From the NCBI GenBank assembly GCA_016938235.1, contig JAFGVA010000223.1, forward strand, positions 406 through 64,405: a stretch of DNA of 64,000 nucleotides, read 5' to 3'. Shown here one piece after another: positions 367-51,739 of the stretch (the first letter of the stretch is position 1; every line of letters starts with the position of its first letter). The position numbers and the translations under genes were made by a program. The stretch comes from Bacteroidales bacterium. GTDB lineage: Bacteria > Bacteroidota > Bacteroidia > Bacteroidales > UBA10428. A model generated the notes under the pieces. That model was not told the origin of the DNA and did no database searches. It was given only the letters and a program-made list of their open reading frames with translations.

Positions 367-2712
367 CTACTTACTAATAAAGAAAAATGTTCCATTCTTG
401 TCTTCAAGGCCTGCAATTCGGCCAAATTGGGGTTTTTGGGCGGTGTGTTTGTACATAACAATAGAAATACGCTCGGCAATGGCATCAATGGGTATGCAGT
501 CGGCCGGGTTGTTTGCCAGGGTGTTGGCAAAGGTGCTGGCAAATAATGAGTTGTCCATGGCCGCTTCGGTATTTGACGAGGTAAGCACCAGGGCCGATTT
601 TTGGTTTATCAGGTTCAAATTATCGCAACTTGCCAGGCTGTTGTCGCCTCGCATGGCCACGGTAAAGCTTTCGCCGGCTTCGCAGGCATCGCTAACAACC
701 AGAATATGGGTAAGCGACGAATAGCTGTACAACGAAGCTTTTAAAGCATTGATATTATAAAAGCTGTATTCGTCGTTTAGTCTTCCGTCAACCGGAATCC
801 AGTACCCGGTATTCTGCATGTTTTTTCCGTGTCCGGCATACCAAATCATAAGCGAGTTTACATGGTTCGCCAGGATTAAATCGCGTAAATCAAGAGCAAA
901 GAAACGCTCCATTTCTCTTTTCGACATGTTCTTCTTTACAAGTACTTTACTGATTTTGTACCTGTCAAGCGCCTGCACCAGGCTTTTCACATCATTCTCA
1001 GGATTTTTAAGGTTTGGAAACTGGTTATAATCTGAATTTTCGATAACAACCACCCAGGTTTTACCCATGGGATTATTTTCGTTAAGCATTTTCCCGTCAC
1101 GGGCAAATTCATAAATACTGCTGGCAGTATTACCGAATTTATCGGTGGCCGTAACCGTAATATTCCGGCGGTTACGAATATCAATTGTACCTGTAAACCT
1201 GGGGTTGTAATCACCCGGGGCAAAGCTGGCATTTACTTCGTCAATCTGAATTTTGGTAATGTTGCTTTTATCCTCAACCCGGCCTTCGATGTACAAAGAA
1301 TTATCGCCACTCTCAAGCCTTATAATGTGATTTGCTTCTGCAACCGGAGAAATTAAACTTATTATGGGGCTTTGAGTTTCTATTTTGCTTACAGGGTACG
1401 AAACACTGGATATATTTTCATAAATATCAGAAGCAGAAAAAGTTAAATAATCTGTTTCGCTTGCAGGCAATTCAACTTCGAAGCTGTAGGTTCCGGGGCT
1501 TTCCTGTTTTACTTCAATGCTCAGGTTGTTTATTTTGAAGTCCGATAAGAGGCTCTCTTCCTGCAGGGTGCCTTCAATACGTATAATATCCTCTTCTTCT
1601 TTCACCTGCAATTCCTGATTCTCGTTTAGTACGGGCAGAATAACAGTTATTTCCGGCTTATTGCTTTCTCTGCCAATCTCAAATATTTTTGTTTCAGCAA
1701 AACTTATTTCTCCTGCCGGGCCGTTTTGGTCTGAAAGAAGTTTTCTATAGGCCGAAAAGTCCTGAATGGCGCTTTTTTTATTGTTGAGCTTTTCGTAAGC
1801 AAGTCCACGGCTTTTGAAGGCAGAACTTACGGTGTCATTTATTTTCAATAGCAGGCTATAGTCGTCAACAGCATTGGCATACAGGGCATAATCAAAATTG
1901 TAATCGGCCCGGTATTTATACAATTCCCAGTTGTCTTTATCTATCGAAATAGCCTTGGTGATATCGGCAATGGCCTGCTCATATTCTTTTTGGCCGTGAA
2001 GAGCCATACTTCGGAGCTTAAGAGCTTGCACATTCATAGGGTCAATTAACAAGATAACCATGCTGCAATTATCAATGGCATAATCGTATTTTTTTTGTTC
2101 AAGCTGAATAGCTGCCAGTTCAAGAAACGATAGGGCAATTTTATTATCTCTGATAATAGATTTTTCAAGTTCCTTTATGGCCAGATCGGTTTGTCCCAGT
2201 CGATGGGCCGATGCTCCACTGTAATACCAGGCAATGCCCATATCTTTGGCTTTAACAGCTTCCTGTGCGCGTTCGTAAGCCTGTTGGTATTGTCCGCTTT
2301 CAAACAGAAGTTTGGTTTTAAAAAGCAGGAAATCGAAACTTTTAGGTTTAATGCTTAAGCCCGACTCAATACAGGCATCGGCATCGCCGGTTTGCGAAAG
2401 ATTATAAAACAGGGTGGCAGCTTTATAATAGTTTTCTTCAGGCAGGTAATTCAGAGCGGCAGACTTTTGATACAATACAGCGGCTTCCAGCGAATCATTT
2501 TTTAACAAAGAAACGGAAGCTTTTAACATATAGGCTTCGCCATCTGCAGCGTCGAGTTTTATAGCCTGGTCAAACTCTTCGTATGCAGCTTCAATCATAC
2601 CGTTTCCTAAAAATTGCTGGCCGGCTTTAATATGCTGTTTTGCACTTTGGGCGGAAACAACCAGGGGAAACAGGATTGCCAATACCGATGTTAGTAAAAA
2701 AATCCTCACCAC
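367..2712 (-). CDS. Secreted TPR-repeat protein with C-terminal caspase-like (peptidase C14) domain
   Basis: 781-aa ORF with GTG start. Signal peptide MVRIFLLTSVLAILFPLVVSAQS, then about 300 aa of TPR-like repeats and a beta-rich middle. The C-terminal 231 aa (370-1062) carry VVVIENSDY..NLKNPENDV, catalytic-type His in WYAGHG (codon 829-831) and Cys in VSDACEAG (codon 682-684). Confidence 0.85.
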   Translation of the reverse strand: MVRIFLLTSVLAILFPLVVSAQSAKQHIKAGQQFLGNGMIEAAYEEFDQAIKLDAADGEAYMLKASVSLLKNDSLEAAVLYQKSAALNYLPEENYYKAATLFYNLSQTGDADACIESGLSIKPKSFDFLLFKTKLLFESGQYQQAYERAQEAVKAKDMGIAWYYSGASAHRLGQTDLAIKELEKSIIRDNKIALSFLELAAIQLEQKKYDYAIDNCSMVILLIDPMNVQALKLRSMALHGQKEYEQAIADITKAISIDKDNWELYKYRADYNFDYALYANAVDDYSLLLKINDTVSSAFKSRGLAYEKLNNKKSAIQDFSAYRKLLSDQNGPAGEISFAETKIFEIGRESNKPEITVILPVLNENQELQVKEEEDIIRIEGTLQEESLLSDFKINNLSIEVKQESPGTYSFEVELPASETDYLTFSASDIYENISSVSYPVSKIETQSPIISLISPVAEANHIIRLESGDNSLYIEGRVEDKSNITKIQIDEVNASFAPGDYNPRFTGTIDIRNRRNITVTATDKFGNTASSIYEFARDGKMLNENNPMGKTWVVVIENSDYNQFPNLKNPENDVKSLVQALDRYKISKVLVKKNMSKREMERFFALDLRDLILANHVNSLMIWYAGHGKNMQNTGYWIPVDGRLNDEYSFYNINALKASLYSYSSLTHILVVSDACEAGESFTVAMRGDNSLASCDNLNLINQKSALVLTSSNTEAAMDNSLFASTFANTLANNPADCIPIDAIAERISIVMYKHTAQKPQFGRIAGLEDKNGTFFFISK

Positions 2713-13340: not shown

Positions 13341-15221
13341 TTAATTGTTTTTCTGGTAGCAACGAACCCAGTCAATTTCCATAGAGTCAGGTAACCCGAG
13401 GTTTGTTTCTTTATAAAGGCCTGCACTTAAATTCAGATACATTTCTTCCGATGGTACCTTACCCTTAATGGTTTTTACATCCAACCCGTTAATTCGCCAG
13501 ACAATTGTATTTTCGTCCCATTCCAAGCTGAAAACATGGAAATCTGCAGAATATCTGCTACGGCTGATGCTTTTCTTAATTTTCACATTATCGTCATAGC
13601 GTATACCGAAATTGCATTTATTTGTTGCTTCTACAACATTAATATGTGGGGTGTTTTGTTCACCAACCATCCAGAAAGCATTAATAAGGTTACTGTTTTT
13701 AGCGAATTTTATTTTTGCTTCAAAGTACCCGTATTTCTGTCGGAAACTTTTGCCGCTATTAATAATACCTGAGGAATAATTATATTCTCGCGGAATAAAG
13801 CCGTGTTCCATAGTCCAGGCTTTACCCATATTTTTTTCCGATTTTGTTACTATTTTTAATACAGTTCCGTTAAGCTCCAGATTTTTCCCTTCTGAGATAA
13901 AATGTTTTTCATTTTCCAAAGAGTATGTATCACCAATAGTTTCTTCGCCCCAATAATACTTTGTCAGCCATTTTTTGCTATCTACCGAACCTTTATCAAA
14001 ATCATCCTCGAAGGTAACCGACCAGTTTTGAATCCAGTCAAATTTCTTGTGGCCCCTGGTTTTAAAGTACCAAACAATTTTTTCCGATTTCTTAAGTTTT
14101 TCAAATTCTGCTAACTGCTTATAAACCTCAGACTGCTGCCAACGCGTTACGGGTTTTAGTTCAAGATACTTTTTCTTTTCAAGAAATTCTTCGGTTTTAA
14201 TGTATTCCGAAAGGGCTTCAAACTTCAGGAGTTTATCGGAGTTACTAATATTGTTGTAGTTGGCCAGTTCTTTTGATTTTCCGAATTTAAAATAGTGTTT
14301 AATATCGGCATCTTTTTGTAATGCTTCAAAATCTTTTAACTTTTTAAATTCGGCTGTACTTTCGAACTTTGCCTTTTCAATTTTGTTTTTTTCACTCTTA
14401 AATTCTTCCGATAGAATATACGTTTCAAGTTCTGTATATACCGACAATTCTTTAGAACCCTCAAGCTTTTGGTAGTGTGTATATATAGCGGAATTTTTAA
14501 GTTTATTATAAGCCTTTATATTTTTAGATTTAGCAAGTGTGGTATATTCTAAAAGCTGTTTACCTTCATCGGACTCCTGGAATTCAGCTTTTTTCATTGA
14601 AGATTTTTTCTTTGCAAATTCAGCAGAAGAGGTGATTTTTTTAAGTTCTTCGTAACGTTTTATTGTATCGCTGTTATCTAATTCTTTAAATGCCGGGAAT
14701 AACTTATCAGAAGTAAATTTTAAATAAGCTTTAAATTGTTGCGAATTTTTTAGTTTCTGGTATTCAAAAAGTTTTTTGCCTGGTTCAGATTGCTCAAATC
14801 TTTTCTTTCCAGGGGTCTTATAGTAAAGTTTTACCTTATTATATTCGTCGGACTGTAAGTATTGCTCAAGCGACTTATAATTCTCAGGTTTATCGGATGC
14901 TTTTGTTTCGTTATAGCTTTTTAAAGCTGCAGATGATAAGGTTTTATAATAGAGTTTGAGTGAAGAATCTTTCTTTAATTGCTTGTATTCCTGTTCTTTT
15001 TTATATTCTTCCGAATCCTTGTATTTCAAGGACAACAATTCGTTTTTTTGTTTTGTAAACTCTTCAGAATTTACATACTTTTCCAGTTCCCTGTATCTGG
15101 TAAGCTCATCAGAAGATTCAAAATCTCCAAGCGCTTTATATTCATCTTCGAGTTCTTTACGTTTTTGCTCGTACACACTGGTTTTAGGGAAAAGCCCAAG
15201 TAATGTTTTAAGTCCGGCCAT
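13341..15221 (-). CDS. K/E/Y-rich repeat protein with C-terminal GH16-fold (concanavalin-like) domain lacking the canonical catalytic motif
   Basis: 626 aa with no signal peptide. About 390 aa of degenerate helical repeats (..EYxxLKxSxxIKxY..). The C-terminal ~230 aa carry GH16-like SGIINSGKSF..YGYFEAKIKF..NAFWMVG and EIDWVRCYQ, but the ExDxxE position reads HINVVE (13629-13646). Confidence 0.7.
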   Translation of the reverse strand: MAGLKTLLGLFPKTSVYEQKRKELEDEYKALGDFESSDELTRYRELEKYVNSEEFTKQKNELLSLKYKDSEEYKKEQEYKQLKKDSSLKLYYKTLSSAALKSYNETKASDKPENYKSLEQYLQSDEYNKVKLYYKTPGKKRFEQSEPGKKLFEYQKLKNSQQFKAYLKFTSDKLFPAFKELDNSDTIKRYEELKKITSSAEFAKKKSSMKKAEFQESDEGKQLLEYTTLAKSKNIKAYNKLKNSAIYTHYQKLEGSKELSVYTELETYILSEEFKSEKNKIEKAKFESTAEFKKLKDFEALQKDADIKHYFKFGKSKELANYNNISNSDKLLKFEALSEYIKTEEFLEKKKYLELKPVTRWQQSEVYKQLAEFEKLKKSEKIVWYFKTRGHKKFDWIQNWSVTFEDDFDKGSVDSKKWLTKYYWGEETIGDTYSLENEKHFISEGKNLELNGTVLKIVTKSEKNMGKAWTMEHGFIPREYNYSSGIINSGKSFRQKYGYFEAKIKFAKNSNLINAFWMVGEQNTPHINVVEATNKCNFGIRYDDNVKIKKSISRSRYSADFHVFSLEWDENTIVWRINGLDVKTIKGKVPSEEMYLNLSAGLYKETNLGLPDSMEIDWVRCYQKNN

Positions 15222-29158: not shown

Positions 29159-30382
29159 CTACTTACCAATATAATATCGATATATCTGGTCTGCAGCATG
29201 ATTTCCAGACCTGTTCGAAACAAAAAAACCTTCTTTCTCCGTAGCCTGAATGAAATAAAAATCATCAAATGAACTGTTAACAGGCAATCCAAGATTCTCT
29301 ATTTGGGTAGTTTCAAAGTTAAGTCTGAAAACATCAAGCCCCCCATATCCGGGCTTTCCATCAGACGAAAAATAAAGGAAGTCATCCGTTAAAAAGGGAT
29401 AGCCTTCGTTAAGAAAACTATTTACAGTTGGCCCCATATTTTGAGGTAAGTCCCATCCGCTTTCTGTTTTAATGGTATAGTAAATATCGAATCCTCCGTA
29501 ACCACCCAGCATATTCGACGAGAAGTACAAAGTTTTGCCATCTTTTGAAATACATGGATGGGTACAACTAAAATCGATATGATTGAATGGGAGCGCTGCT
29601 GGAGAAGTTTTTTCCTGCGAAAGGTTTGCAGTATAAATGAAAAGGTTATTGACATCTCCGGCTCCAATCTTTTTTCTGTTTCTTCCTGAATTTGAATAAG
29701 CAACTAAATCAACTGCGCTTGCACTAAAATACAGAATATTGTTTTTTATATCGAAGGAAGGGGAGTTTGTATTCAGCGGAAATTCAATATTAGCTAAATT
29801 TCCTAGCAGTTCGTCTTGCCTGCCGCTATAGGCAAAAGTCAGGTTTTGAGTTCTTTGTTCCGATAGATTTAACACAAAAAATAAAATATCGCGGTACAGG
29901 GAAATTCCAAAACTACTGTTAGCCGGGAGGTCATTTAAAAGAGTGATAGAAACAGATTTGTCTGTTGTATTGTTACTTAAGGCATATGTGCATTTTTGCA
30001 GAAGAATATCTTCCATAAATAGTCCGGCATCTGAAGACTGTAAGAGTTGTTGTGCATCTTTATAGTTGCCCGATTCAATCAGGGCATTTGAATATTCAAT
30101 TAGCTGTTCGGGTTCCAGAACATAGCCTGAAGAAGCTGTTTTTTTGAAATAATCAACCGCTTTAAATGGTTGGTGCAGACAATAATAACAAGAAGCTATT
30201 TTAAGGTTATTTTGTGCTATCTCAATAATGTCTGTCAGATTCACTTCCAGCTGAAGATAAATGGCTAATGCTTCGTTATAACGACCTTTGTCATAATAAT
30301 TATTAGCCTGGGATATTTTTTTTGACTGAGCCAGGCAGATTACAGGAACAAAAGCAAGTATTAAAAGCAAGCTTCTCAACAC
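29159..30382 (-). CDS. TPR plus PD40 (TolB-like beta-propeller repeat) protein, T9SS-cluster associated, with no OmpA domain
   Basis: 407 aa with signal peptide and N-terminal TPR-like repeats. PD40-type repeats LYFSSNMLGGYGGFDIYY and LYFSSDGKPGYGGLDVFR. The ORF ends without an OmpA/peptidoglycan-binding segment. Confidence 0.7.
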   Translation of the reverse strand: MLRSLLLILAFVPVICLAQSKKISQANNYYDKGRYNEALAIYLQLEVNLTDIIEIAQNNLKIASCYYCLHQPFKAVDYFKKTASSGYVLEPEQLIEYSNALIESGNYKDAQQLLQSSDAGLFMEDILLQKCTYALSNNTTDKSVSITLLNDLPANSSFGISLYRDILFFVLNLSEQRTQNLTFAYSGRQDELLGNLANIEFPLNTNSPSFDIKNNILYFSASAVDLVAYSNSGRNRKKIGAGDVNNLFIYTANLSQEKTSPAALPFNHIDFSCTHPCISKDGKTLYFSSNMLGGYGGFDIYYTIKTESGWDLPQNMGPTVNSFLNEGYPFLTDDFLYFSSDGKPGYGGLDVFRLNFETTQIENLGLPVNSSFDDFYFIQATEKEGFFVSNRSGNHAADQIYRYYIGK

Positions 30383-30420
30383 AAATCCTTTTTACTAACT
30401 GTTTCTAATAATCACACTTT

Positions 30421-31389
30421 TTAAAATCTGGGCGATTGAATATTCAGTGGTCTCATTATAGCATGAGAGTATTGAACATACAATTCATGACCTGCAAGAT
30501 AGGCATTATTCAGATTAAAATTGCTATGGTAGCAATAACCGGCTTTCAGGCGTTCGTTTATTTGCAACTGACCAAAATACAATATTTCACGTTTGGTTCT
30601 GTAGGAAATGCCCATGCTGAAATATTTGTTGTGAGAATATAGCATATTCAGATCTGCATCAACAGGTGAGTTGACATCAATTTTTACCAGGCTTGAAATC
30701 TGAAGGTACTGCTCGTAGTATTTAAAATTATATTTATAACCTCCGTGCAAATAATATATCCAGTTTTGGGGCATAGCATGGTAACTTGCAGTGTACTCCG
30801 ATTCGTATGCAACAATTTCAGTTGATATCAGACTTGGGATAGCAATACCTACATAATAATCTTTATGCTTTAATTTCATACCGAAACTGAAATCGGGGCT
30901 TACAACTGATTTTGAATAGCCAAATTGTTCATCATCGGGATCAAAGGGTTTGATTTTAGTAAAATTACTGCTTATAATCTGAGCACCACCTCCTAATCCA
31001 AAACTTAAAGTATGGTATCGCATTAATTTAACACGGTGTGAATAATTGGCCAGTATTCTTTGTTTATTATGCACTCCATATGACTCCTGTGAAATTGACA
31101 GTCCGGCTGAATTATTCTGAAAGGGCTGAATAAGTTCAAGCCCCGTTTTTAAGGGAGCTCCATTTATTGATACCCATTGCCGGCGGCCATACAAAAAGGC
31201 TGTGAAGTAATCGTAATCGTTAATTGCGGCCGTGTTAATGAGTGGATTAAAGGCCATGTAGTGAGCCAGATCTGGCTGAGTCTGGCAGTATATATTTTGC
31301 TTTTGGGGCAACAGGAATACATAAAATAATATCAGCAATCGGAATAGATTCTGAGCTGTTAAGTTTGTATGTTTCCTGTATTGACACAT
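30421..31389 (-). CDS. PorP/SprF-family type IX secretion membrane protein
   Basis: 322 aa. QPDLAHYMAFNPLINTAAIN.. and RRQWVSINGAPLT-type motifs, beta-barrel-like alternation, C-terminal aromatic. Immediately downstream of the type-B cargo gene. Confidence 0.8.
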   Translation of the reverse strand: MCQYRKHTNLTAQNLFRLLILFYVFLLPQKQNIYCQTQPDLAHYMAFNPLINTAAINDYDYFTAFLYGRRQWVSINGAPLKTGLELIQPFQNNSAGLSISQESYGVHNKQRILANYSHRVKLMRYHTLSFGLGGGAQIISSNFTKIKPFDPDDEQFGYSKSVVSPDFSFGMKLKHKDYYVGIAIPSLISTEIVAYESEYTASYHAMPQNWIYYLHGGYKYNFKYYEQYLQISSLVKIDVNSPVDADLNMLYSHNKYFSMGISYRTKREILYFGQLQINERLKAGYCYHSNFNLNNAYLAGHELYVQYSHAIMRPLNIQSPRF

Positions 31390-31398
31390 TATTCTCAG

Positions 31399-32487
31399 TT
31401 ATTTTCCGGCTTTTATTTCGATATAACCACTTATTACTGATGTTTTTTCGTTCTTGTCTTTAAAAAAGAGATAATAGTAAGTTCCATCGGGCAGTATGGA
31501 GCTGTTTGCAATTCCATACCCCGGAACATTTTCTCCACCCCAGCTATTGTCGTATGGTTCAGCTTCGTAAATAACATCGCTCCATTTGTTAAAGACAACA
31601 AATCGATTGTTAGGGTATGCCTCCAGACCTCCAATAATTAAGATATCGTTATGTTGATCATTGTTAGGAGATATTCCATTTGGAATAGTTATATCCGACG
31701 ATGACTCGTATTCAAACAGGGTTAAAAAATGTTTTCCTTCGGTAAGCAAGGCTTTTATGTTGGTATTTTCTTCTGAGAACTCCGAACTGAGCAGTGGAAC
31801 CCAGCTGTTATCGGTATTATTCCAGATTACTAATTTTTCTATATCCAGGTTATTTTGCTCTGGCTCCAGAAAACTAAACTCAACAACAGCAGGGGCAGAT
31901 AGCTCGTTAATTACATAATATCTTTCTACACTTGATTTATCCAGAGTATTATTAATCTGATGACCCCGGCGAATTTCAACATTTGATTCATTTGCATCGC
32001 TGGTAATTGTAATTCCGATATTGCCCGGATTAGATGAAATTCCTGCGATTAAATCTGCTCTTTCCATTATTTCTCCGGTTCCTGAAGAAAAAATTCTGTT
32101 GTCGTCCGATTCATTTAAAATGTGACCATTCATCAACCACAGCTGGTTACTCTTTATATCGAGCAGGCTGTTTTCCAAGTTAATACGCTCATCGATGTAA
32201 ATCGTTGTTTCTAAAGACCAATTTCCCTTTAGAGTAAGATTTGATAAAAAGTAATTTGTATTACCACCAATTATTTTTTCTTCTTCAACAGTATTAGAAA
32301 GAACAAGAGTGCTGCTTTTATTCATTGAAATATTTCCATCAATAATAAGCGATTGATTCTCTAATGACAATACAGTTCCTGAATCTACTGATAGCACACC
32401 GGAGTTAACAACAAGCTGTGAATATAAATTGCTTATTGCAAATGCCAGTACAAAATTGGAAATGAGTATTTTAAACTTCATTTTCAA
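31399..32487 (-). CDS. Secreted protein with T9SS type-B (gliding-motility-associated) C-terminal sorting domain
   Basis: 362 aa with signal peptide. C-terminal IPNGISPNNDQHNDILIIGGLEAYPNNRFVVFNKWSDVIYE..LPDGTYYYLF matches the type-B CTD pattern (PNxFSPNxDGxND..F..GL..YP.N...IFNRWG..GTYFY). Confidence 0.85.
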   Translation of the reverse strand: MKMKFKILISNFVLAFAISNLYSQLVVNSGVLSVDSGTVLSLENQSLIIDGNISMNKSSTLVLSNTVEEEKIIGGNTNYFLSNLTLKGNWSLETTIYIDERINLENSLLDIKSNQLWLMNGHILNESDDNRIFSSGTGEIMERADLIAGISSNPGNIGITITSDANESNVEIRRGHQINNTLDKSSVERYYVINELSAPAVVEFSFLEPEQNNLDIEKLVIWNNTDNSWVPLLSSEFSEENTNIKALLTEGKHFLTLFEYESSSDITIPNGISPNNDQHNDILIIGGLEAYPNNRFVVFNKWSDVIYEAEPYDNSWGGENVPGYGIANSSILPDGTYYYLFFKDKNEKTSVISGYIEIKAGK

Positions 32488-32507
32488 GGGCTTTTAAATT
32501 TCCAGGT

Positions 32508-35252
32508 TTAGTTTTGATTTTGCAGCGACTGAACAATTTTCTCAAGTTCTTCTAAACGTTTTTCCAGTTCTTCCTGCTCAGAAAGTTTAGTATTTAATTG
32601 TTCAATGGTTTTTTCCAGTTCCTGGTTTTGCATTTCTAACGAATCAACTTTTGCATTTAATTCCTGTACTGATTTGGTTATTAGGGGGGTAAGCTTGCCG
32701 TAATCAACTCCCCAGGGATCAGTAATTGGGTTCTCACCACCAATAGAAACGGCACCTGGAAAAACACTAAATAATTCCTGTGCAGCAAAACCTGTTTCAA
32801 GTTTATCAGAATTTATAAAGTTGAAGTCATAAACTTTTATTTCCAATAGTTTTTCTAGGCCATAGGATGTTGGCGTCAGGTTTTCTTTAAGCCTTATATC
32901 AGATGTAGTTGTGTAAGCAATAGTGCTACCATTTGGCTCTATTTGTCCTATTTTAGCATTATTTCCATCAAGAAATTGGATATAATCATTAACAATCGTG
33001 GGAGAAACTAGAGCGTTCATTCTTAATTGAATTAATCCATCTGGTGCAATAGAAGTGCACTCAATTCTAAAAGGAGAATTAGCAGAACTTATAATATGCA
33101 GTGGTCTTGTTGGTAGATTATGTCCAATACCAACATTACCAGTAGCTGAAACAAAAATCCCTTCATCATCACCATCGTTGGAAAGGTAGTGACCAGATAG
33201 CTGAATATTTTCCGTTGCAGTATGATCACCCAAATCGTCTCCTGCAGCAGTTATTTCAACAGAACCTCCATTTGTTAAGCTTAAGGTGGTGCCGCTAAGT
33301 GATAATTGCTGTGCATCTGTATTATCAAGGTAAGCACTTAAATCAACAGGTGTAGCATCGTTGCTTAGACTGAGAGTATTATCCGTTAAAGTAAGATCCT
33401 GATTATCGGTATTATCCAGGTAACCTGACAAGTCAACTGTTGTTCCATCGTTTGTGAGACTTAGCTCATCATTTGTCAGGCTGAGATCCTGGTTGTCGGT
33501 ATTATCAAGATATGTTCCCAGGAAAACCTTGTTAGCATTAGCAATATAAAGCGTGTCATCCAATAGCAAGAGGGTTTGCGCATCTGTATTATCAAGGTAA
33601 GGTGTTAAATCAACATTGTTTCCATCTGAAATAGTCAAACGGTTTGTGGGATTAATACTTAATGTCTGGCTGTCAGTATTATCTAAGTATGCTCCAAGAT
33701 AAACCCAGTTACCATCAACAATATACAATGTATCGTTTGAAAAAGAAAGCGTCTGATCATCGGTATCGACACCTGACAGGGTGCTTAAATCAACAAAATT
33801 ACCATCTTCTATGGTAAGAATTGAGCCTGTTAAATCGAGGGTCTGATCATCTGTATTATCAAGATAGCTGCTTAAATCTACAGTAGTTGCATCACCCGAA
33901 AGGCTTAGTGTGTTTCCGGTCCGCGATAAATCCTGAATTTCGTTAAGAATACTTGCATCGCCTTCAATGGAACTGATTAATACCTCTTCCCAGTCTGTAC
34001 CGTTCCACCGCAAAATAGTATTTGCTGTACCAGTGGCATCTTGTAACTTAGAGTATTCAACTGCATTATTATTGATTTGCACGATTCCTGTTTCCGCCAG
34101 TGTTATATCTCCCGAAATTGACTGGGCCGACCAGGATGAGCCATCACCAATAAGCAGACTACCCGAAGTTGGGCTTGAAGCTTGTACATCGGTTATGTCA
34201 TCGATACTGGAATTTGTTTTATCAATAAGCCCCCAGGTGTAATCGCCATATTGGGCAACAATAGATCCTGTTCTTCCAAAAACTGAATTTACATCGTTTG
34301 AATTATTTATTTTTTGCCAGGAAGTACCGTTGTGAATTGCCCAATCGCCCGGTTCAAAAGTAATATCTCCGGATCCCAGGTTCTGGGTTCCTGCAGCAGA
34401 AACAATATAATATTCTCCGTTTTCGCCTCCGGCATTACTTAAAAAAGGATTATTCTGATTAGCATCCCAGGTACCCATGTATGTTAATCCGCTGGATATT
34501 GAAGCCGGTGCCCAATTAGCGCCATTGTATCTTAGAAACTGGTCAACACTTGCACCCATAGGATGTAGTTTTGCCGAAGTGATTTGTGCATCCTGAATTT
34601 TTGAAGTAGAAATAGCGTTATCGGCAAGTTTAGCATTGGTAACAGCAGCATCCTCAATTTCTGAGGACTGAATCGCATCATCTCCAAGGTTTACAGTACC
34701 GTTTGTATTCAGGTTTTCAAGGTTGGCAGTTCCATTAACTGCCAGATTGCCAGAGAAATCTGCGTTTCCGCTGGTTGTTATCCGCAATCCCTCGTTATCA
34801 CCATCGGCCGACAGGTAGTAGGTGTTTAAAGCAATGTTCTGACTTGCGCTATGGTTACCTAAATTGTCACTAATTGCTGACAATAAAATATAGCCTCCCT
34901 GGCTTAAAAACAAAGTATCACCAACTCGGCTTAAAAACTGGATTTCATTGGTGGGATCAGCATCATTATCAACTGCTGAACTTCCAATATTTTCCCACGA
35001 TTGTCCGTTGAAGTAATAAAATCCTGCAGCATTATCAGTTTGGTAAATAAGTAATCCTTCGGCAGGATTTATGATGTTCATTTTTTCGGAGAAGCTCATT
35101 CGGGGGATTAATAACCCTTTGGCTGTTGAACGAATTTCAAGGGCTGCGCTTGAATGGGGTGAGAATTCATGATCCGCAATTCCGACACTCTGACTGAAAA
35201 CACCTTGGAGTGAAAGGATTGCAAGGTTTAAGAACAATAAAATTTTTTTCAT
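32508..35252 (-). CDS. Tail-fibre-like secreted repeat protein with C-terminal peptidase-S74 (intramolecular chaperone) domain
   Basis: About 914 aa from the ATG at 35252 (MKKILLFLNLAILSLQGVFSQ). The ORF-track GTG at 35276 overlaps a -7 box. N-terminal GLLIPRMS..GLLIYQTDN..FYYFNGQSW module; seven ~30-aa YLDNTDxQ repeats (33252-33930); C-terminal SDIRLKEN..GFAAQEL..DYGKLTPL plus coiled coil (32511-32903). Confidence 0.8.
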   Translation of the reverse strand: MKKILLFLNLAILSLQGVFSQSVGIADHEFSPHSSAALEIRSTAKGLLIPRMSFSEKMNIINPAEGLLIYQTDNAAGFYYFNGQSWENIGSSAVDNDADPTNEIQFLSRVGDTLFLSQGGYILLSAISDNLGNHSASQNIALNTYYLSADGDNEGLRITTSGNADFSGNLAVNGTANLENLNTNGTVNLGDDAIQSSEIEDAAVTNAKLADNAISTSKIQDAQITSAKLHPMGASVDQFLRYNGANWAPASISSGLTYMGTWDANQNNPFLSNAGGENGEYYIVSAAGTQNLGSGDITFEPGDWAIHNGTSWQKINNSNDVNSVFGRTGSIVAQYGDYTWGLIDKTNSSIDDITDVQASSPTSGSLLIGDGSSWSAQSISGDITLAETGIVQINNNAVEYSKLQDATGTANTILRWNGTDWEEVLISSIEGDASILNEIQDLSRTGNTLSLSGDATTVDLSSYLDNTDDQTLDLTGSILTIEDGNFVDLSTLSGVDTDDQTLSFSNDTLYIVDGNWVYLGAYLDNTDSQTLSINPTNRLTISDGNNVDLTPYLDNTDAQTLLLLDDTLYIANANKVFLGTYLDNTDNQDLSLTNDELSLTNDGTTVDLSGYLDNTDNQDLTLTDNTLSLSNDATPVDLSAYLDNTDAQQLSLSGTTLSLTNGGSVEITAAGDDLGDHTATENIQLSGHYLSNDGDDEGIFVSATGNVGIGHNLPTRPLHIISSANSPFRIECTSIAPDGLIQLRMNALVSPTIVNDYIQFLDGNNAKIGQIEPNGSTIAYTTTSDIRLKENLTPTSYGLEKLLEIKVYDFNFINSDKLETGFAAQELFSVFPGAVSIGGENPITDPWGVDYGKLTPLITKSVQELNAKVDSLEMQNQELEKTIEQLNTKLSEQEELEKRLEELEKIVQSLQNQN

Positions 35253-35275
35253 ACGTATAGCTTGGGTTTGCGGCA

Positions 35276-35283
35276 CAAATATA
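35276..35283 (-). promoter_or_regulatory. Candidate -7 box for the tail-fibre-like / T9SS operon
   Basis: Plus-strand CAAATATA equals minus-strand TATATTTG, 24 nt upstream of the ATG at 35252. Confidence 0.4.
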
Positions 35284-50180: not shown

Positions 50181-50540
50181 ATGAAAAACAAAATATCATC
50201 AGAATTGCTTAAAGGTTCTTTGAAACCAATTATTCTAAAACTGCTGAAAGAGCAGGGCAGGATGTATGGCTACGAAATAACTCAACAGGTTGAGGAACTG
50301 AGCAAGGGTAAAATAGTGCTTACCTACGGGGCTCTTTATCCCATATTACACAAACTCGAAAACGATGAAATTGTAATTACCGAACAGGAAATTGTAAACA
50401 ACCGAACACGTGTTTACTATAAACTTACTCCAAAAGGTTCTGAAAAGTCGGTTGAGAAAATCAGAGAGATGGAGGCTTTTTTACAAACCTTGGGAATATT
50501 GTTTAAACCCAGTCCAAATGTTGGTCTATGCAATACCTGA
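50181..50540 (+). CDS. PadR-family transcriptional regulator
   Basis: 119 aa. LKGSLKPIILKLLKEQGRMYGYEITQQV.. and GALYPILHKLE are winged-helix PadR signatures. Confidence 0.88.
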   Translation: MKNKISSELLKGSLKPIILKLLKEQGRMYGYEITQQVEELSKGKIVLTYGALYPILHKLENDEIVITEQEIVNNRTRVYYKLTPKGSEKSVEKIREMEAFLQTLGILFKPSPNVGLCNT

Positions 50541-51739
50541 CAAGTGAACAGATAGATGCAATTGATGCAGAACTGAAAAATGCTGAAATAAATTATTCGC
50601 ATTTACCCGAAGATTTATTGGATCATATCTGCTGCGATATTGAAAAATACCTGAACGATGGGCTCAATTTCAATGAGGCCTACCAATCGGTATTTGATAA
50701 GATTGGAATTAACGGATTAAAGGAAATTCAGGAGGCAACTATCTTTTATGTTAAACTAAATCTTATGAAAATGAAAAAATTGATGAATTTTATGGCTTTG
50801 ATCGGAGGCATTTCGGTTACTGCAGGAATGTTCTTTAAACTTATGCACTGGCCGGGTGGGGGGATTGTACTTACCTTTGGATTCTTATTTTTGTTCCTGG
50901 GTTTTTTCCCGGCTGCACTTATGAACCTTCGAAAAGAATTGGAGCAAAAATTCTTTTCAGCAGGTTTTTTAATCTATTTAGTAGGTTTCTTAACCTTTGT
51001 AATTACAGGGGCAGCAATGATCTTTAAAATGATGCATTGGCCTGGCGGTGGACTTCTTGTTTCAGCCAGCATGATCTTATTGTTTCTCATTTTTTTCCCG
51101 GTTTTGTTTTTTAAAATAGTCAGAACAGAGAAAAACAGGATCGTTAATCTCTCATTGGTTTTATTTGCCTTCCTTTTTGCTGGTTTTATTACCGTTTCTA
51201 ACCTGAATAGCGCACGCAACGTTTCAAACGTTTTCCAATATGAAGATCTGACAGCAGAATTAGCTTATTACAAAGAGGCAATGAAAACTCAAGCCAGCAG
51301 CACGGTATTCAGTGAAGCAGAGTACACTGCAAGTTTAAAACTTTTTAATACCTTGAATACAGACATAGAGGATCTCAAATCCCTGATTCTTAATGACAGG
51401 AAGGATATTTATGAACTAAACTTCAGGCTAAACCATTTCTCTTTATTAGAAGATGTATATGATTCACGCCTGATTGCTTTAAAAGAAGAAATTGAAGCAT
51501 ATAAGCAGCAAATGCTCAAACTTGCCGGGAATAGTAAAGATTTATCAATTTTGATAAATGCATTATTCAATACAGAAGATTACCAATTGGAATATTATCA
51601 CAGGCCATGGATAGAGAGAAAATTTGATAGGTCATACGTGGGAAAACTAACAAGTTTGCAGCAATTACAAAAGTATATTTACCAGACACAATATGAAGTT
51701 TTAAGGTACCAGGTACTTAATTCATCGACTCCTGAATAA
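50528..51739 (+). CDS. PadR-coupled membrane protein with a duplicated FK(L/M)MHWPGGG TM hairpin
   Basis: 403 aa with a 13-nt overlap with padR. Soluble N-domain, two homologous modules (GMFFKLMHWPGGGIVLTFGFLFLFLGFFP and AAMIFKMMHWPGGGLLVSASMILLFLIFFP), and a C-terminal ~190-aa helical domain. Confidence 0.6.
   Translation: MQYLTSEQIDAIDAELKNAEINYSHLPEDLLDHICCDIEKYLNDGLNFNEAYQSVFDKIGINGLKEIQEATIFYVKLNLMKMKKLMNFMALIGGISVTAGMFFKLMHWPGGGIVLTFGFLFLFLGFFPAALMNLRKELEQKFFSAGFLIYLVGFLTFVITGAAMIFKMMHWPGGGLLVSASMILLFLIFFPVLFFKIVRTEKNRIVNLSLVLFAFLFAGFITVSNLNSARNVSNVFQYEDLTAELAYYKEAMKTQASSTVFSEAEYTASLKLFNTLNTDIEDLKSLILNDRKDIYELNFRLNHFSLLEDVYDSRLIALKEEIEAYKQQMLKLAGNSKDLSILINALFNTEDYQLEYYHRPWIERKFDRSYVGKLTSLQQLQKYIYQTQYEVLRYQVLNSSTPE

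Follow-up and report, generated by a model that had tools for sequence, protein, structure and literature searches.

On the minus strand of a 64,000-nucleotide stretch of DNA from a Bacteroidales bacterium (GTDB lineage UBA10428; contig JAFGVA010000223.1 of assembly GCA_016938235.1; "the window", below, is this stretch at its full length) lie four tightly spaced genes: gene 1 specifies a secreted protein made of phage tail-fibre modules, gene 2 a small type IX secretion system (T9SS) cargo protein, gene 3 a PorP/SprF-family protein of the outer membrane, and gene 4 a short PorE-like protein of the periplasm. It is the pairing of the fibre with the cargo that is new; the parts are of known families, and the T9SS trio (genes 2 to 4) has been published as an operon type. 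Scans of gene 1 against Pfam and NCBIfam return no T9SS sorting-domain family, of type A or of type B, at E ≤ 0.01. How, then, might such a fibre reach the cell surface? The proposal developed here, for which the neighbourhoods and domain contents of these genes make about an even chance, is that the fibre docks as a trimer on the cargo protein, and that the two are exported and anchored through the T9SS.

The pairing is seen in gene neighbourhoods, and it involves one particular part of gene 2: the N-terminal domain, designated g2N, that precedes the sorting domain. The full four-gene cassette is found in three other genomes, at loci L001/L002 (same flanks), L003 (in a 6.7-Mb genome, with unrelated flanks) and L004 (unrelated flanks), with 43-51% identity of the fibre across L001, L003 and L004. 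A gene 2 orthologue follows the fibre gene at these three loci and also at L085, where the fibre has a Collar domain in place of S74 and is followed all the same by the genes of a g2N type-B cargo and of PorP; at L087, three S74 fibres in tandem are followed by a g2N protein. The converse approach gives the same association. A PTL_trimer gene (PTL_trimer being the family of the fibre's N-terminal head) stands upstream of each of four g2N members whose choice took no account of context: directly upstream of P0142, P0159 and P0253, and at a distance of one gene for P0199. A background set was provided by 80 loci from a contig scan that was seeded with gene 2 orthologues, its matches being nearly all to the generic type-B sorting domain: g2N is present at just one of them (L074), which is also the sole locus with a fibre gene upstream. 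At all five loci that were reached without a fibre as bait (a small sample), a fibre gene precedes g2N, either directly or at a distance of one gene, and an open reading frame (ORF) with PTL_trimer or S74 adjoins g2N in 19 of the 19 g2N-containing loci sampled.

Which end of the fibre is the constant one? The only region common to all the upstream partners is the PTL_trimer head; their C-terminal ends carry S74, Collar, Gly_rich_2 or none of these. In every fibre partner examined the PTL domain begins right after the signal peptide (in other homologues the head is internal or in tandem). The head is likewise the only region that gene 1 has in common with an otherwise unrelated 559-residue PTL_trimer protein of L088 (50% identity, residues 1-80). 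On the side of the partner, the sorting domain may be exchanged: the pairing is kept with type A or with type B, so that the constant element is the linkage of fibre to g2N, and the 44 aligned g2N members include 19 with CHU_C (type B) and 20 with Por_Secre_tail (type A). Where the fibre has a Por_Secre_tail of its own (P0076 and P0104, at L174 and L175), no g2N gene is found within 6 kb, in two cases of two. The earlier note on this DNA had suggested that a fibre devoid of a sorting domain rides on, or is anchored by, the type-B protein next to it; the five-of-five pairing, the exchange of type A for type B and the two fibres with their own sorting domain all back that suggestion, which we continue to infer.

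The assignment of the C-terminus of gene 1 to the S74 family of intramolecular chaperones is well supported. S74 domains nucleate the folding of trimers and then cut themselves off; the catalytic Ser/Lys pair has a +5 spacing in endosialidase and in MYRF. In gene 1, Peptidase_S74 (PF13884) covers residues 784-835 and profile positions 1-57 of 58 (E=2e-10; 41.2 bits, where the cut-off is 22), with the motifs SDIRLKEN, GFAAQEL and DYGKLTPL at residues 784, 821 and 850. No substitution of S784, D785 or K789 is seen among 22 full-length relatives or among 19 aligned S74 regions. A profile of the family C-terminus matches the solved S74 domains of the phage S16 long tail fibre (6f45), tail fibre 8jov, MYRF (7dc3, the structure of a cleavage-site mutant), the GA-1 neck appendage (3gud) and T5 pb1 (8hqz), and the SD.RLK motif stands in register in the three alignments printed (6f45, 8jov and 7dc3). 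The domain is C-terminally placed and leads into a helical coiled coil: the AlphaFold2 model of gene 1 has a long helix at residues 851-913, with a predicted local distance difference test score (pLDDT) of ~78, and the alignments with entries of the PDB reach into this helical part. Score, S-D-x-R-x-K motif and placement thus all agree with membership. By analogy, the protein is predicted to trimerize and then to cleave itself before Ser784 by means of Ser784 and Lys789.

The same domain is also found at L171 (7698-9083), where a 461-residue protein carries Peptidase_S74 (residues 236-297) together with a C-terminal Por_Secre_tail. Self-cleavage there would remove the T9SS sorting signal along with the chaperone. 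This protein clusters with a PTL_trimer protein and with a g2N protein that bears MopE and Calx-beta domains.

The remainder of gene 1 is also fibre-like. Its full-length orthologues (43-53% identity) have PTL_trimer and Peptidase_S74, and searches of PHROGs give tail-fibre and minor-tail-protein matches, residues 249-348 matching "minor tail protein" and "tail protein". YLDNTD, the signature of the shaft repeats, occurs at residues 463, 522, 552, 581, 611 and 641, and the shaft has a regular β-hairpin periodicity in the predicted model. Beyond the shaft, pre-tip and tip occupy residues 669-783. Among 13 orthologues the tip (residues 716-783) is the most variable part of the protein, with 28% mean pairwise identity against 54-59% in the rest; the head stands at 59%. 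Variability placed just before the predicted cleavage site is the pattern of a receptor-binding tip. The model of the gene 1 monomer is poor (mean pLDDT 52.7, rising to 75-85 at residues 50-90), as is to be expected because the fibre would be an obligate trimer. Searching PDB sequences with the whole of gene 1 and with the PTL_trimer alignment gave no matches.

Relatives of the fibre exchange their ends. P0008, P0010 and P0014-P0016 (for example, L085:7001-10474) have the phage tail Collar domain (PF07484) in place of S74, and others join PTL_trimer to YadA_head: head and shaft are conserved, while the modules at the C-terminus change. Two to four PTL_trimer + S74 paralogues are arrayed in tandem at L086 and L087 (Lewinellaceae / Saprospiraceae-type contigs of metagenome-assembled genomes), L216 and L254. 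The L086 and L087 arrays have on their flanks the genes of large regulators of the hybrid sensor kinase / AraC type (Reg_prop, Y_Y_Y, HisKA, HTH_18), an arrangement suggestive of fibre sets that are regulated or exchangeable.

Gene 2 has the properties of a type-B cargo: a signal peptide (MKMKFKILISNFVLAFAISNLYSQ), a C-terminal sorting domain and a PorP/SprF-like gene only 9 nucleotides downstream. The profile of its family finds GhpA's C-terminal sorting domain (PDB 9flp, E=1.9e-12), and the AlphaFold2 model is of high confidence (pLDDT 91). Secretion through the T9SS with the aid of the cognate PorP-like protein is accordingly what would be predicted from the known systems. A Foldseek search with the model produced no significant PDB match, and among predicted viral structures it matched the sorting domain only. 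(A technical note: a word-indexed homologue search with g2N gave two proteins only, and an exhaustive profile search was used instead; with E ≤ 1e-3 it returned no fewer than 1228 representatives of clusters, with E ≤ 1e-10 it returned 680.) The domain is found also inside large adhesin-like T9SS proteins, in the company of SdrD_B, Calx-beta and HYR domains.

Genes 3 and 4 complete an arrangement that is common at type-B loci: downstream of the cargo at the 80 generic loci, a PorP-like gene is found in 54 and a PorE-like gene in 45. Gene 3 belongs to the PorP/SprF family over nearly the whole of the profile (PF11751, E=4.5e-37, 128.5 bits; TIGR03519, 140.7 bits against 90.55, with residues 19-308 on profile positions 5-291 of 292), and its position is conserved in L001, L003, L004, L085 and L178. 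Gene 4 is less orthodox. TPR_2 is just under its cut-off (26.8 bits against 27) and PD40 is above (24.2 against 20.9); the longer models match in their N-terminal part only, NF053607 (CHU_0125) at positions 5-409 of 639 and the PorE model NF052230 up to position 417 of 648, both with scores well short of the cut-off (for NF052230, 136.4 bits where 600 are needed). PorE comprises TPR, β-propeller, CRD and OmpA_C; no OmpA family is found in gene 4 by the Pfam and NCBIfam scans. The shortening is kept in three orthologues, which are 407-429 residues long and have the same end point, while PorE-like ORFs at the generic type-B loci have a median length of 718 residues against the 407 of gene 4. Judged by its sequence, then, gene 4 is similar to PorE in the N-terminal half of the latter, lacks the peptidoglycan-binding OmpA_C half, and is not the equivalent of PorE. 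One study describes the OmpA_C-like domain as essential for PorE function in Porphyromonas gingivalis (PMC12773672). That gene 4 might be a lipoprotein of the PorE type is not supported: the orthologues have no conserved lipobox cysteine. Short PorE-like ORFs (475-508 residues, where 650-870 is usual) are also found at the generic type-B loci L017, L056 and L062; loss of the OmpA half may thus recur outside the fibre cassette.

The proposed sequence of events is the following. 1) All four products, each of which has an N-terminal signal peptide on reading its sequence, would enter the periplasm by that route. 2) Gene 1 would trimerize from its S74 domain, which would then cut itself off at Ser784 and expose the hypervariable tip. 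3) The conserved PTL_trimer head would bind g2N, as the pairing of the genes suggests. 4) The type-B sorting domain of gene 2 would be recognized by the T9SS translocon and the cognate gene 3 product. 5) Gene 2 would either take the fibre along in its export or capture it; because cargo of type B remains attached to the PorP-like protein that serves it, the fibre would then be held on the cell, tip outward, as an adhesin or receptor-binding device. 6) The gene 4 product would bind that of gene 3 from the periplasmic side, probably with no tether to the cell wall. A more general version of this scheme must be put tentatively, at odds worse than even: that the T9SS exports a hetero-oligomer, in which a phage-derived trimeric fibre docks on a g2N adaptor whose type-A or type-B domain sets delivery and anchoring; that this is a widespread and hitherto undescribed system for surface fibres in the Bacteroidota (at least 1228 g2N representatives); and that it is carried by phages also, as a two-gene module that possibly remodels the surface of the infected cell.

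A number of considerations weigh against the scheme. A trimer of ~760-residue chains would need to pass the translocon. The match of gene 2 to TIGR04131 is a marginal pass (35.1 bits against a cut-off of 35). The core T9SS genes are absent from the 64-kb window. The g2N-seeded sample comes to five cases. The link is, moreover, one-directional and not universal: among 40 informative metagenome loci seeded with PTL_trimer (by a scan that used a narrower alignment and is biased towards relatives of gene 1), eight have g2N next door, two have instead some other ORF that carries a sorting domain, and in 30 there is neither, so that many such fibres work without g2N. There is no fusion of fibre and g2N among 149 g2N representatives or 120 fibre homologues, and no report of a cargo without a sorting domain carried through the T9SS by a partner was found in an incomplete collection of the literature.

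Might genes 2 to 4 be an ordinary type-B module that is merely co-regulated with gene 1, the two forming no complex? The fibre would then stay in the periplasm or the outer membrane, or would leave by way of vesicles, lysis or an unrecognized signal. The missing sorting domain of the fibre, the lack of fusions, the preponderance of metagenome PTL_trimer proteins with no g2N neighbour and the want of a precedent for partner-carried export all speak for this explanation. It is nevertheless considered unlikely, although it is the rival to be taken most seriously. It does not explain why g2N adjoins fibres while the other 79 type-B cargo genes sampled do not, why the pairing survives a swap of sorting domains, or why the partner is missing where the fibre has a sorting domain of its own; and a fibre of ~760 residues with a hypervariable tip has no obvious role in the periplasm.

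The geometry could also be reversed, gene 2 being a secreted tip protein, an assembly factor or a binding subunit of the fibre instead of its membrane anchor. The order of the genes, fibre and then small partner, does mirror that of phage tail-fibre loci, and the occurrence of g2N within large adhesin-like T9SS proteins would suit a binding module. The C-terminal ends of the upstream partners differ, however, and what these partners have in common is the N-terminal head only; type-B sorting domains stay bound to PorP-like proteins at the membrane (PMC9143113); and the fibre would still be in need of an export route. The reversed arrangement is accordingly judged improbable.

The PTL_trimer head is common in the contigs of IMG/VR, with at least 293 confirmed matches; among the 80 retained the head is without g2N in 76, and the pair is found in the other four contigs (L090, L092, L094 and L097). 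On two of these, at L092:7947-10187 and L094:3546-6397, a PTL_trimer protein is followed by a g2N protein, both with Sec signal peptides, and the g2N protein of L094 has a Por_Secre_tail (type A). The same two contigs encode T4-like RNA ligases, polynucleotide kinase, homing endonucleases or topoisomerase II. The fibre:g2N pair thus appears to travel on phages also, as a secreted module and not as part of the virion, which leaves room for a role in phage-host conflict: a surface fibre might mask receptors, trap virions or exclude superinfection. The company of T4-like genes on L092 and L094, and the fact that all the modules of the fibre are common to phages, would fit such a device. Pfam scans, with no scan dedicated to defence systems, place no defence genes around the cassette, however, and the idea concerns purpose more than mechanism, being compatible with T9SS-anchored display of the fibre. 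As an explanation in its own right it has a slender probability.

Gene 1 matches tail PHROGs and solved phage S74 domains, and one might therefore take it for the remnant or edge of a prophage, a tailocin or a contractile injection system; this is effectively excluded by a 64-kb context with no virion genes, in which the flanks hold genes for ATP synthase, for the synthesis of fatty acids, for tRNA synthetase and for polysaccharides, by unremarkable G+C content, by the Sec signal peptide of the fibre and by the intact state of the cassette at different chromosomal sites in other genomes.

How does the system compare with those already described? Cargo of type B, a PorP/SprF-like protein and a PorE-like protein make up a published type of operon, of which Flavobacterium johnsoniae has five, and Fjoh_3952/3951/3950 has been proposed to form a static, wall-anchored complex (PMC12618676). 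PG1035, PorP and PorE of P. gingivalis have been shown to associate physically, and so have SprB and SprF of F. johnsoniae (PMC9143113). Secretion of the cargo depends on its cognate PorP-like protein, to which the cargo stays attached on the surface, and PorP binds PorE (PMC12618676, PMC9143113). The earlier note had identified genes 2 to 4 as cargo, PorP/SprF and TPR-PD40 protein; these identities stand, and the amendments to be made are that the trio is of the published type and that gene 4 is PorE-like without the OmpA_C half. Genes 2 to 4 are like Fjoh_3952-3951-3950 and PG1035-PorP-PorE in order and in domain families. They differ in the small size of the cargo and its g2N domain, in the extra fibre gene upstream, and in a PorE-like protein without CRD and OmpA_C. 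No literature was found on g2N, or on a fibre with S74 or PTL_trimer in combination with T9SS cargo, in the same incomplete collection.

Long extracellular filaments that need a type-B domain and a PorP/SprF-like protein are known from the sprB operon (sprC-sprD-sprB-sprF) and from GhpA of Aureispira. The sprB operon, too, has accessory genes upstream. In SprB and GhpA the filament itself carries the sorting domain, whereas here filament and sorting domain are on separate polypeptides. With the S74 fibres and spikes of phages (K1F endosialidase, T5 pb1, the S16 long tail fibre, the GA-1 neck appendage) gene 1 shares the SD.RLK S74 domain with its coiled coil, the variable region before the cleavage site and a repetitive shaft; unlike them it is chromosomal and begins with a Sec signal peptide, virion genes are absent from its vicinity, and its N-terminus is paired with a T9SS cargo instead of a baseplate or tail. 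MYRF is another instance of a cellular protein that has recruited the trimerize-then-cleave domain (the family profile matches 7dc3 with E=3.8e-13), but MYRF is a membrane-bound eukaryotic transcription factor with no role in secretion and no fibre.

T9SS cargo proteins have so far been understood as single polypeptides, each with a C-terminal sorting domain of its own. A fibre and a sorting domain on two chains would be a testable case of partner-mediated export or capture, and would separate what is displayed from how it is anchored. One can think of the proposal as a working hypothesis for the large g2N family and for many of the "tail fiber domain-containing" proteins of the Bacteroidota. 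Gene 1 would also show clearly how fibre modules of phages (the PTL_trimer head, the repeats of the shaft and the S74 chaperone) can be domesticated as structures of the cell surface. The conserved loss of the peptidoglycan-binding half of gene 4 bears, in its turn, on the idea that PorE-like proteins make type-B complexes static.

The layout of the operon, as the earlier note had described it, agrees with the ORF coordinates and with a motif scan: four co-directional ORFs between 29159 and 35252, gaps of 20, 9 and 38 nucleotides, and one candidate -7 box. The database call for gene 2 (P0121) begins at an ATG at 32481, two codons in, giving 360 residues and a gap of 26 nucleotides after gene 1. 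There are six matches to TAnnTTTG between 29100 and 35480, of which TATATTTG is the sole intergenic one upstream of the operon, the other five lying within or at the end of coding sequence. No -33 TTG is present at a suitable spacing from TATATTTG, and a generic scan for sigma-70 promoters and terminators gave no excess over chance. The four domain assignments of that note were checked with hidden Markov models and all hold, the S74 and type-B calls among them. Coordinates are collected in the table.

Table. Features of the fibre/T9SS operon (positions are those of the window; residue numbers are those of the respective protein)
Feature	Positions	Strand	Basis or remark
Candidate Bacteroidota -7 box, TATATTTG	35276..35283	-	consensus match only; ~23 nucleotides upstream of the gene 1 ATG
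Gene 1, secreted fibre, 914 residues	32508..35252	-	ATG at 35252 (ORF spans 32508-35276); orthologues with PTL_trimer + Peptidase_S74; PHROGs tail-fibre matches
Gene 1 Sec signal peptide, residues 1-20, MKKILLFLNLAILSLQGVFSQ then S	35193..35252	-	read from sequence
Gene 1 PTL_trimer-type head, residues 21-95 (~75), proposed docking end	34968..35192	-	precomputed family PF26696
Gene 1 shaft, eight ~30-residue repeats ending YLDNTD.Q.L, residues 441-668	33249..33932	-	sequence and model
Gene 1 variable tip, residues 716-783 (68)	32904..33107	-	predicted mature C-terminus after self-cleavage
Gene 1 S74 intramolecular chaperone and C-terminal coiled coil, residues 784-914 (last 131)	32511..32903	-	predicted cleavage at Ser784
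Gene 2, T9SS type-B cargo, proposed fibre adaptor/anchor, 362 residues	31399..32487	-	CHU_C, TIGR04131
g2N, N-domain of gene 2, residues 24-265 (~240), all-β	31693..32418	-	exhaustive profile search; no Pfam model
Gene 2 type-B sorting domain, residues 266-362	31402..31692	-	CHU_C (PF13585), E=8.7e-20, 71.1 bits against 27
Gene 3, PorP/SprF-family outer-membrane protein, presumed cognate shuttle/anchor of gene 2, 322 residues	30421..31389	-	PF11751, TIGR03519
Gene 4, short PorE-like periplasmic protein, TPR + β-propeller, without CRD and OmpA_C, 407 residues	29159..30382	-	partial NCBIfam matches

Forty flanking ORFs, spread over the 64 kb, were scanned with Pfam; the scans find housekeeping and envelope functions only, and no gene for capsid, terminase, sheath, tube, baseplate, tape measure, integrase or injection system. 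The operon is bordered by genes for a GT9 glycosyltransferase and glycyl-tRNA synthetase; these neighbours and the absence of a phage context had been pointed out before, and the wider context now confirms that the operon is at the edge of neither a prophage nor a tailocin. Elsewhere in the window are SusC/SusD, tyrosyl- and glycyl-tRNA synthetases, a whole F-type ATP synthase, PlsX, FabH, an ABC transporter and a proton pyrophosphatase, together with polysaccharide genes (glycosyltransferases, a Wzy-type protein and a flippase). There is one tRNA-Arg, and G+C content is even throughout. AtpD has its best named relatives, at 82-90% identity, in entries labelled 'MAG: Bacteroidales bacterium' (other hits reach 92%), which points to an uncultured member of the Bacteroidales as the source.

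Three other ORFs of the window can be mentioned. At 50528-51739 (plus strand) a 403-residue ORF weakly matches the N-terminal domain of GldL (29.2 bits, the cut-off being 24, with no single stretch passing); it might be a protein related to the T9SS/gliding motor, or the match might be due to chance. At 367-2712 (minus strand) a 781-residue protein combines N-terminal TPR repeats with a C-terminal caspase-like Peptidase_C14. Finally, at 13341-15221 (minus strand) lies the gene of a 626-residue protein with a C-terminal GH16 glycoside hydrolase domain; it has a Wzy-type O-antigen ligase-like gene on one side and the operon of the ATP synthase on the other.

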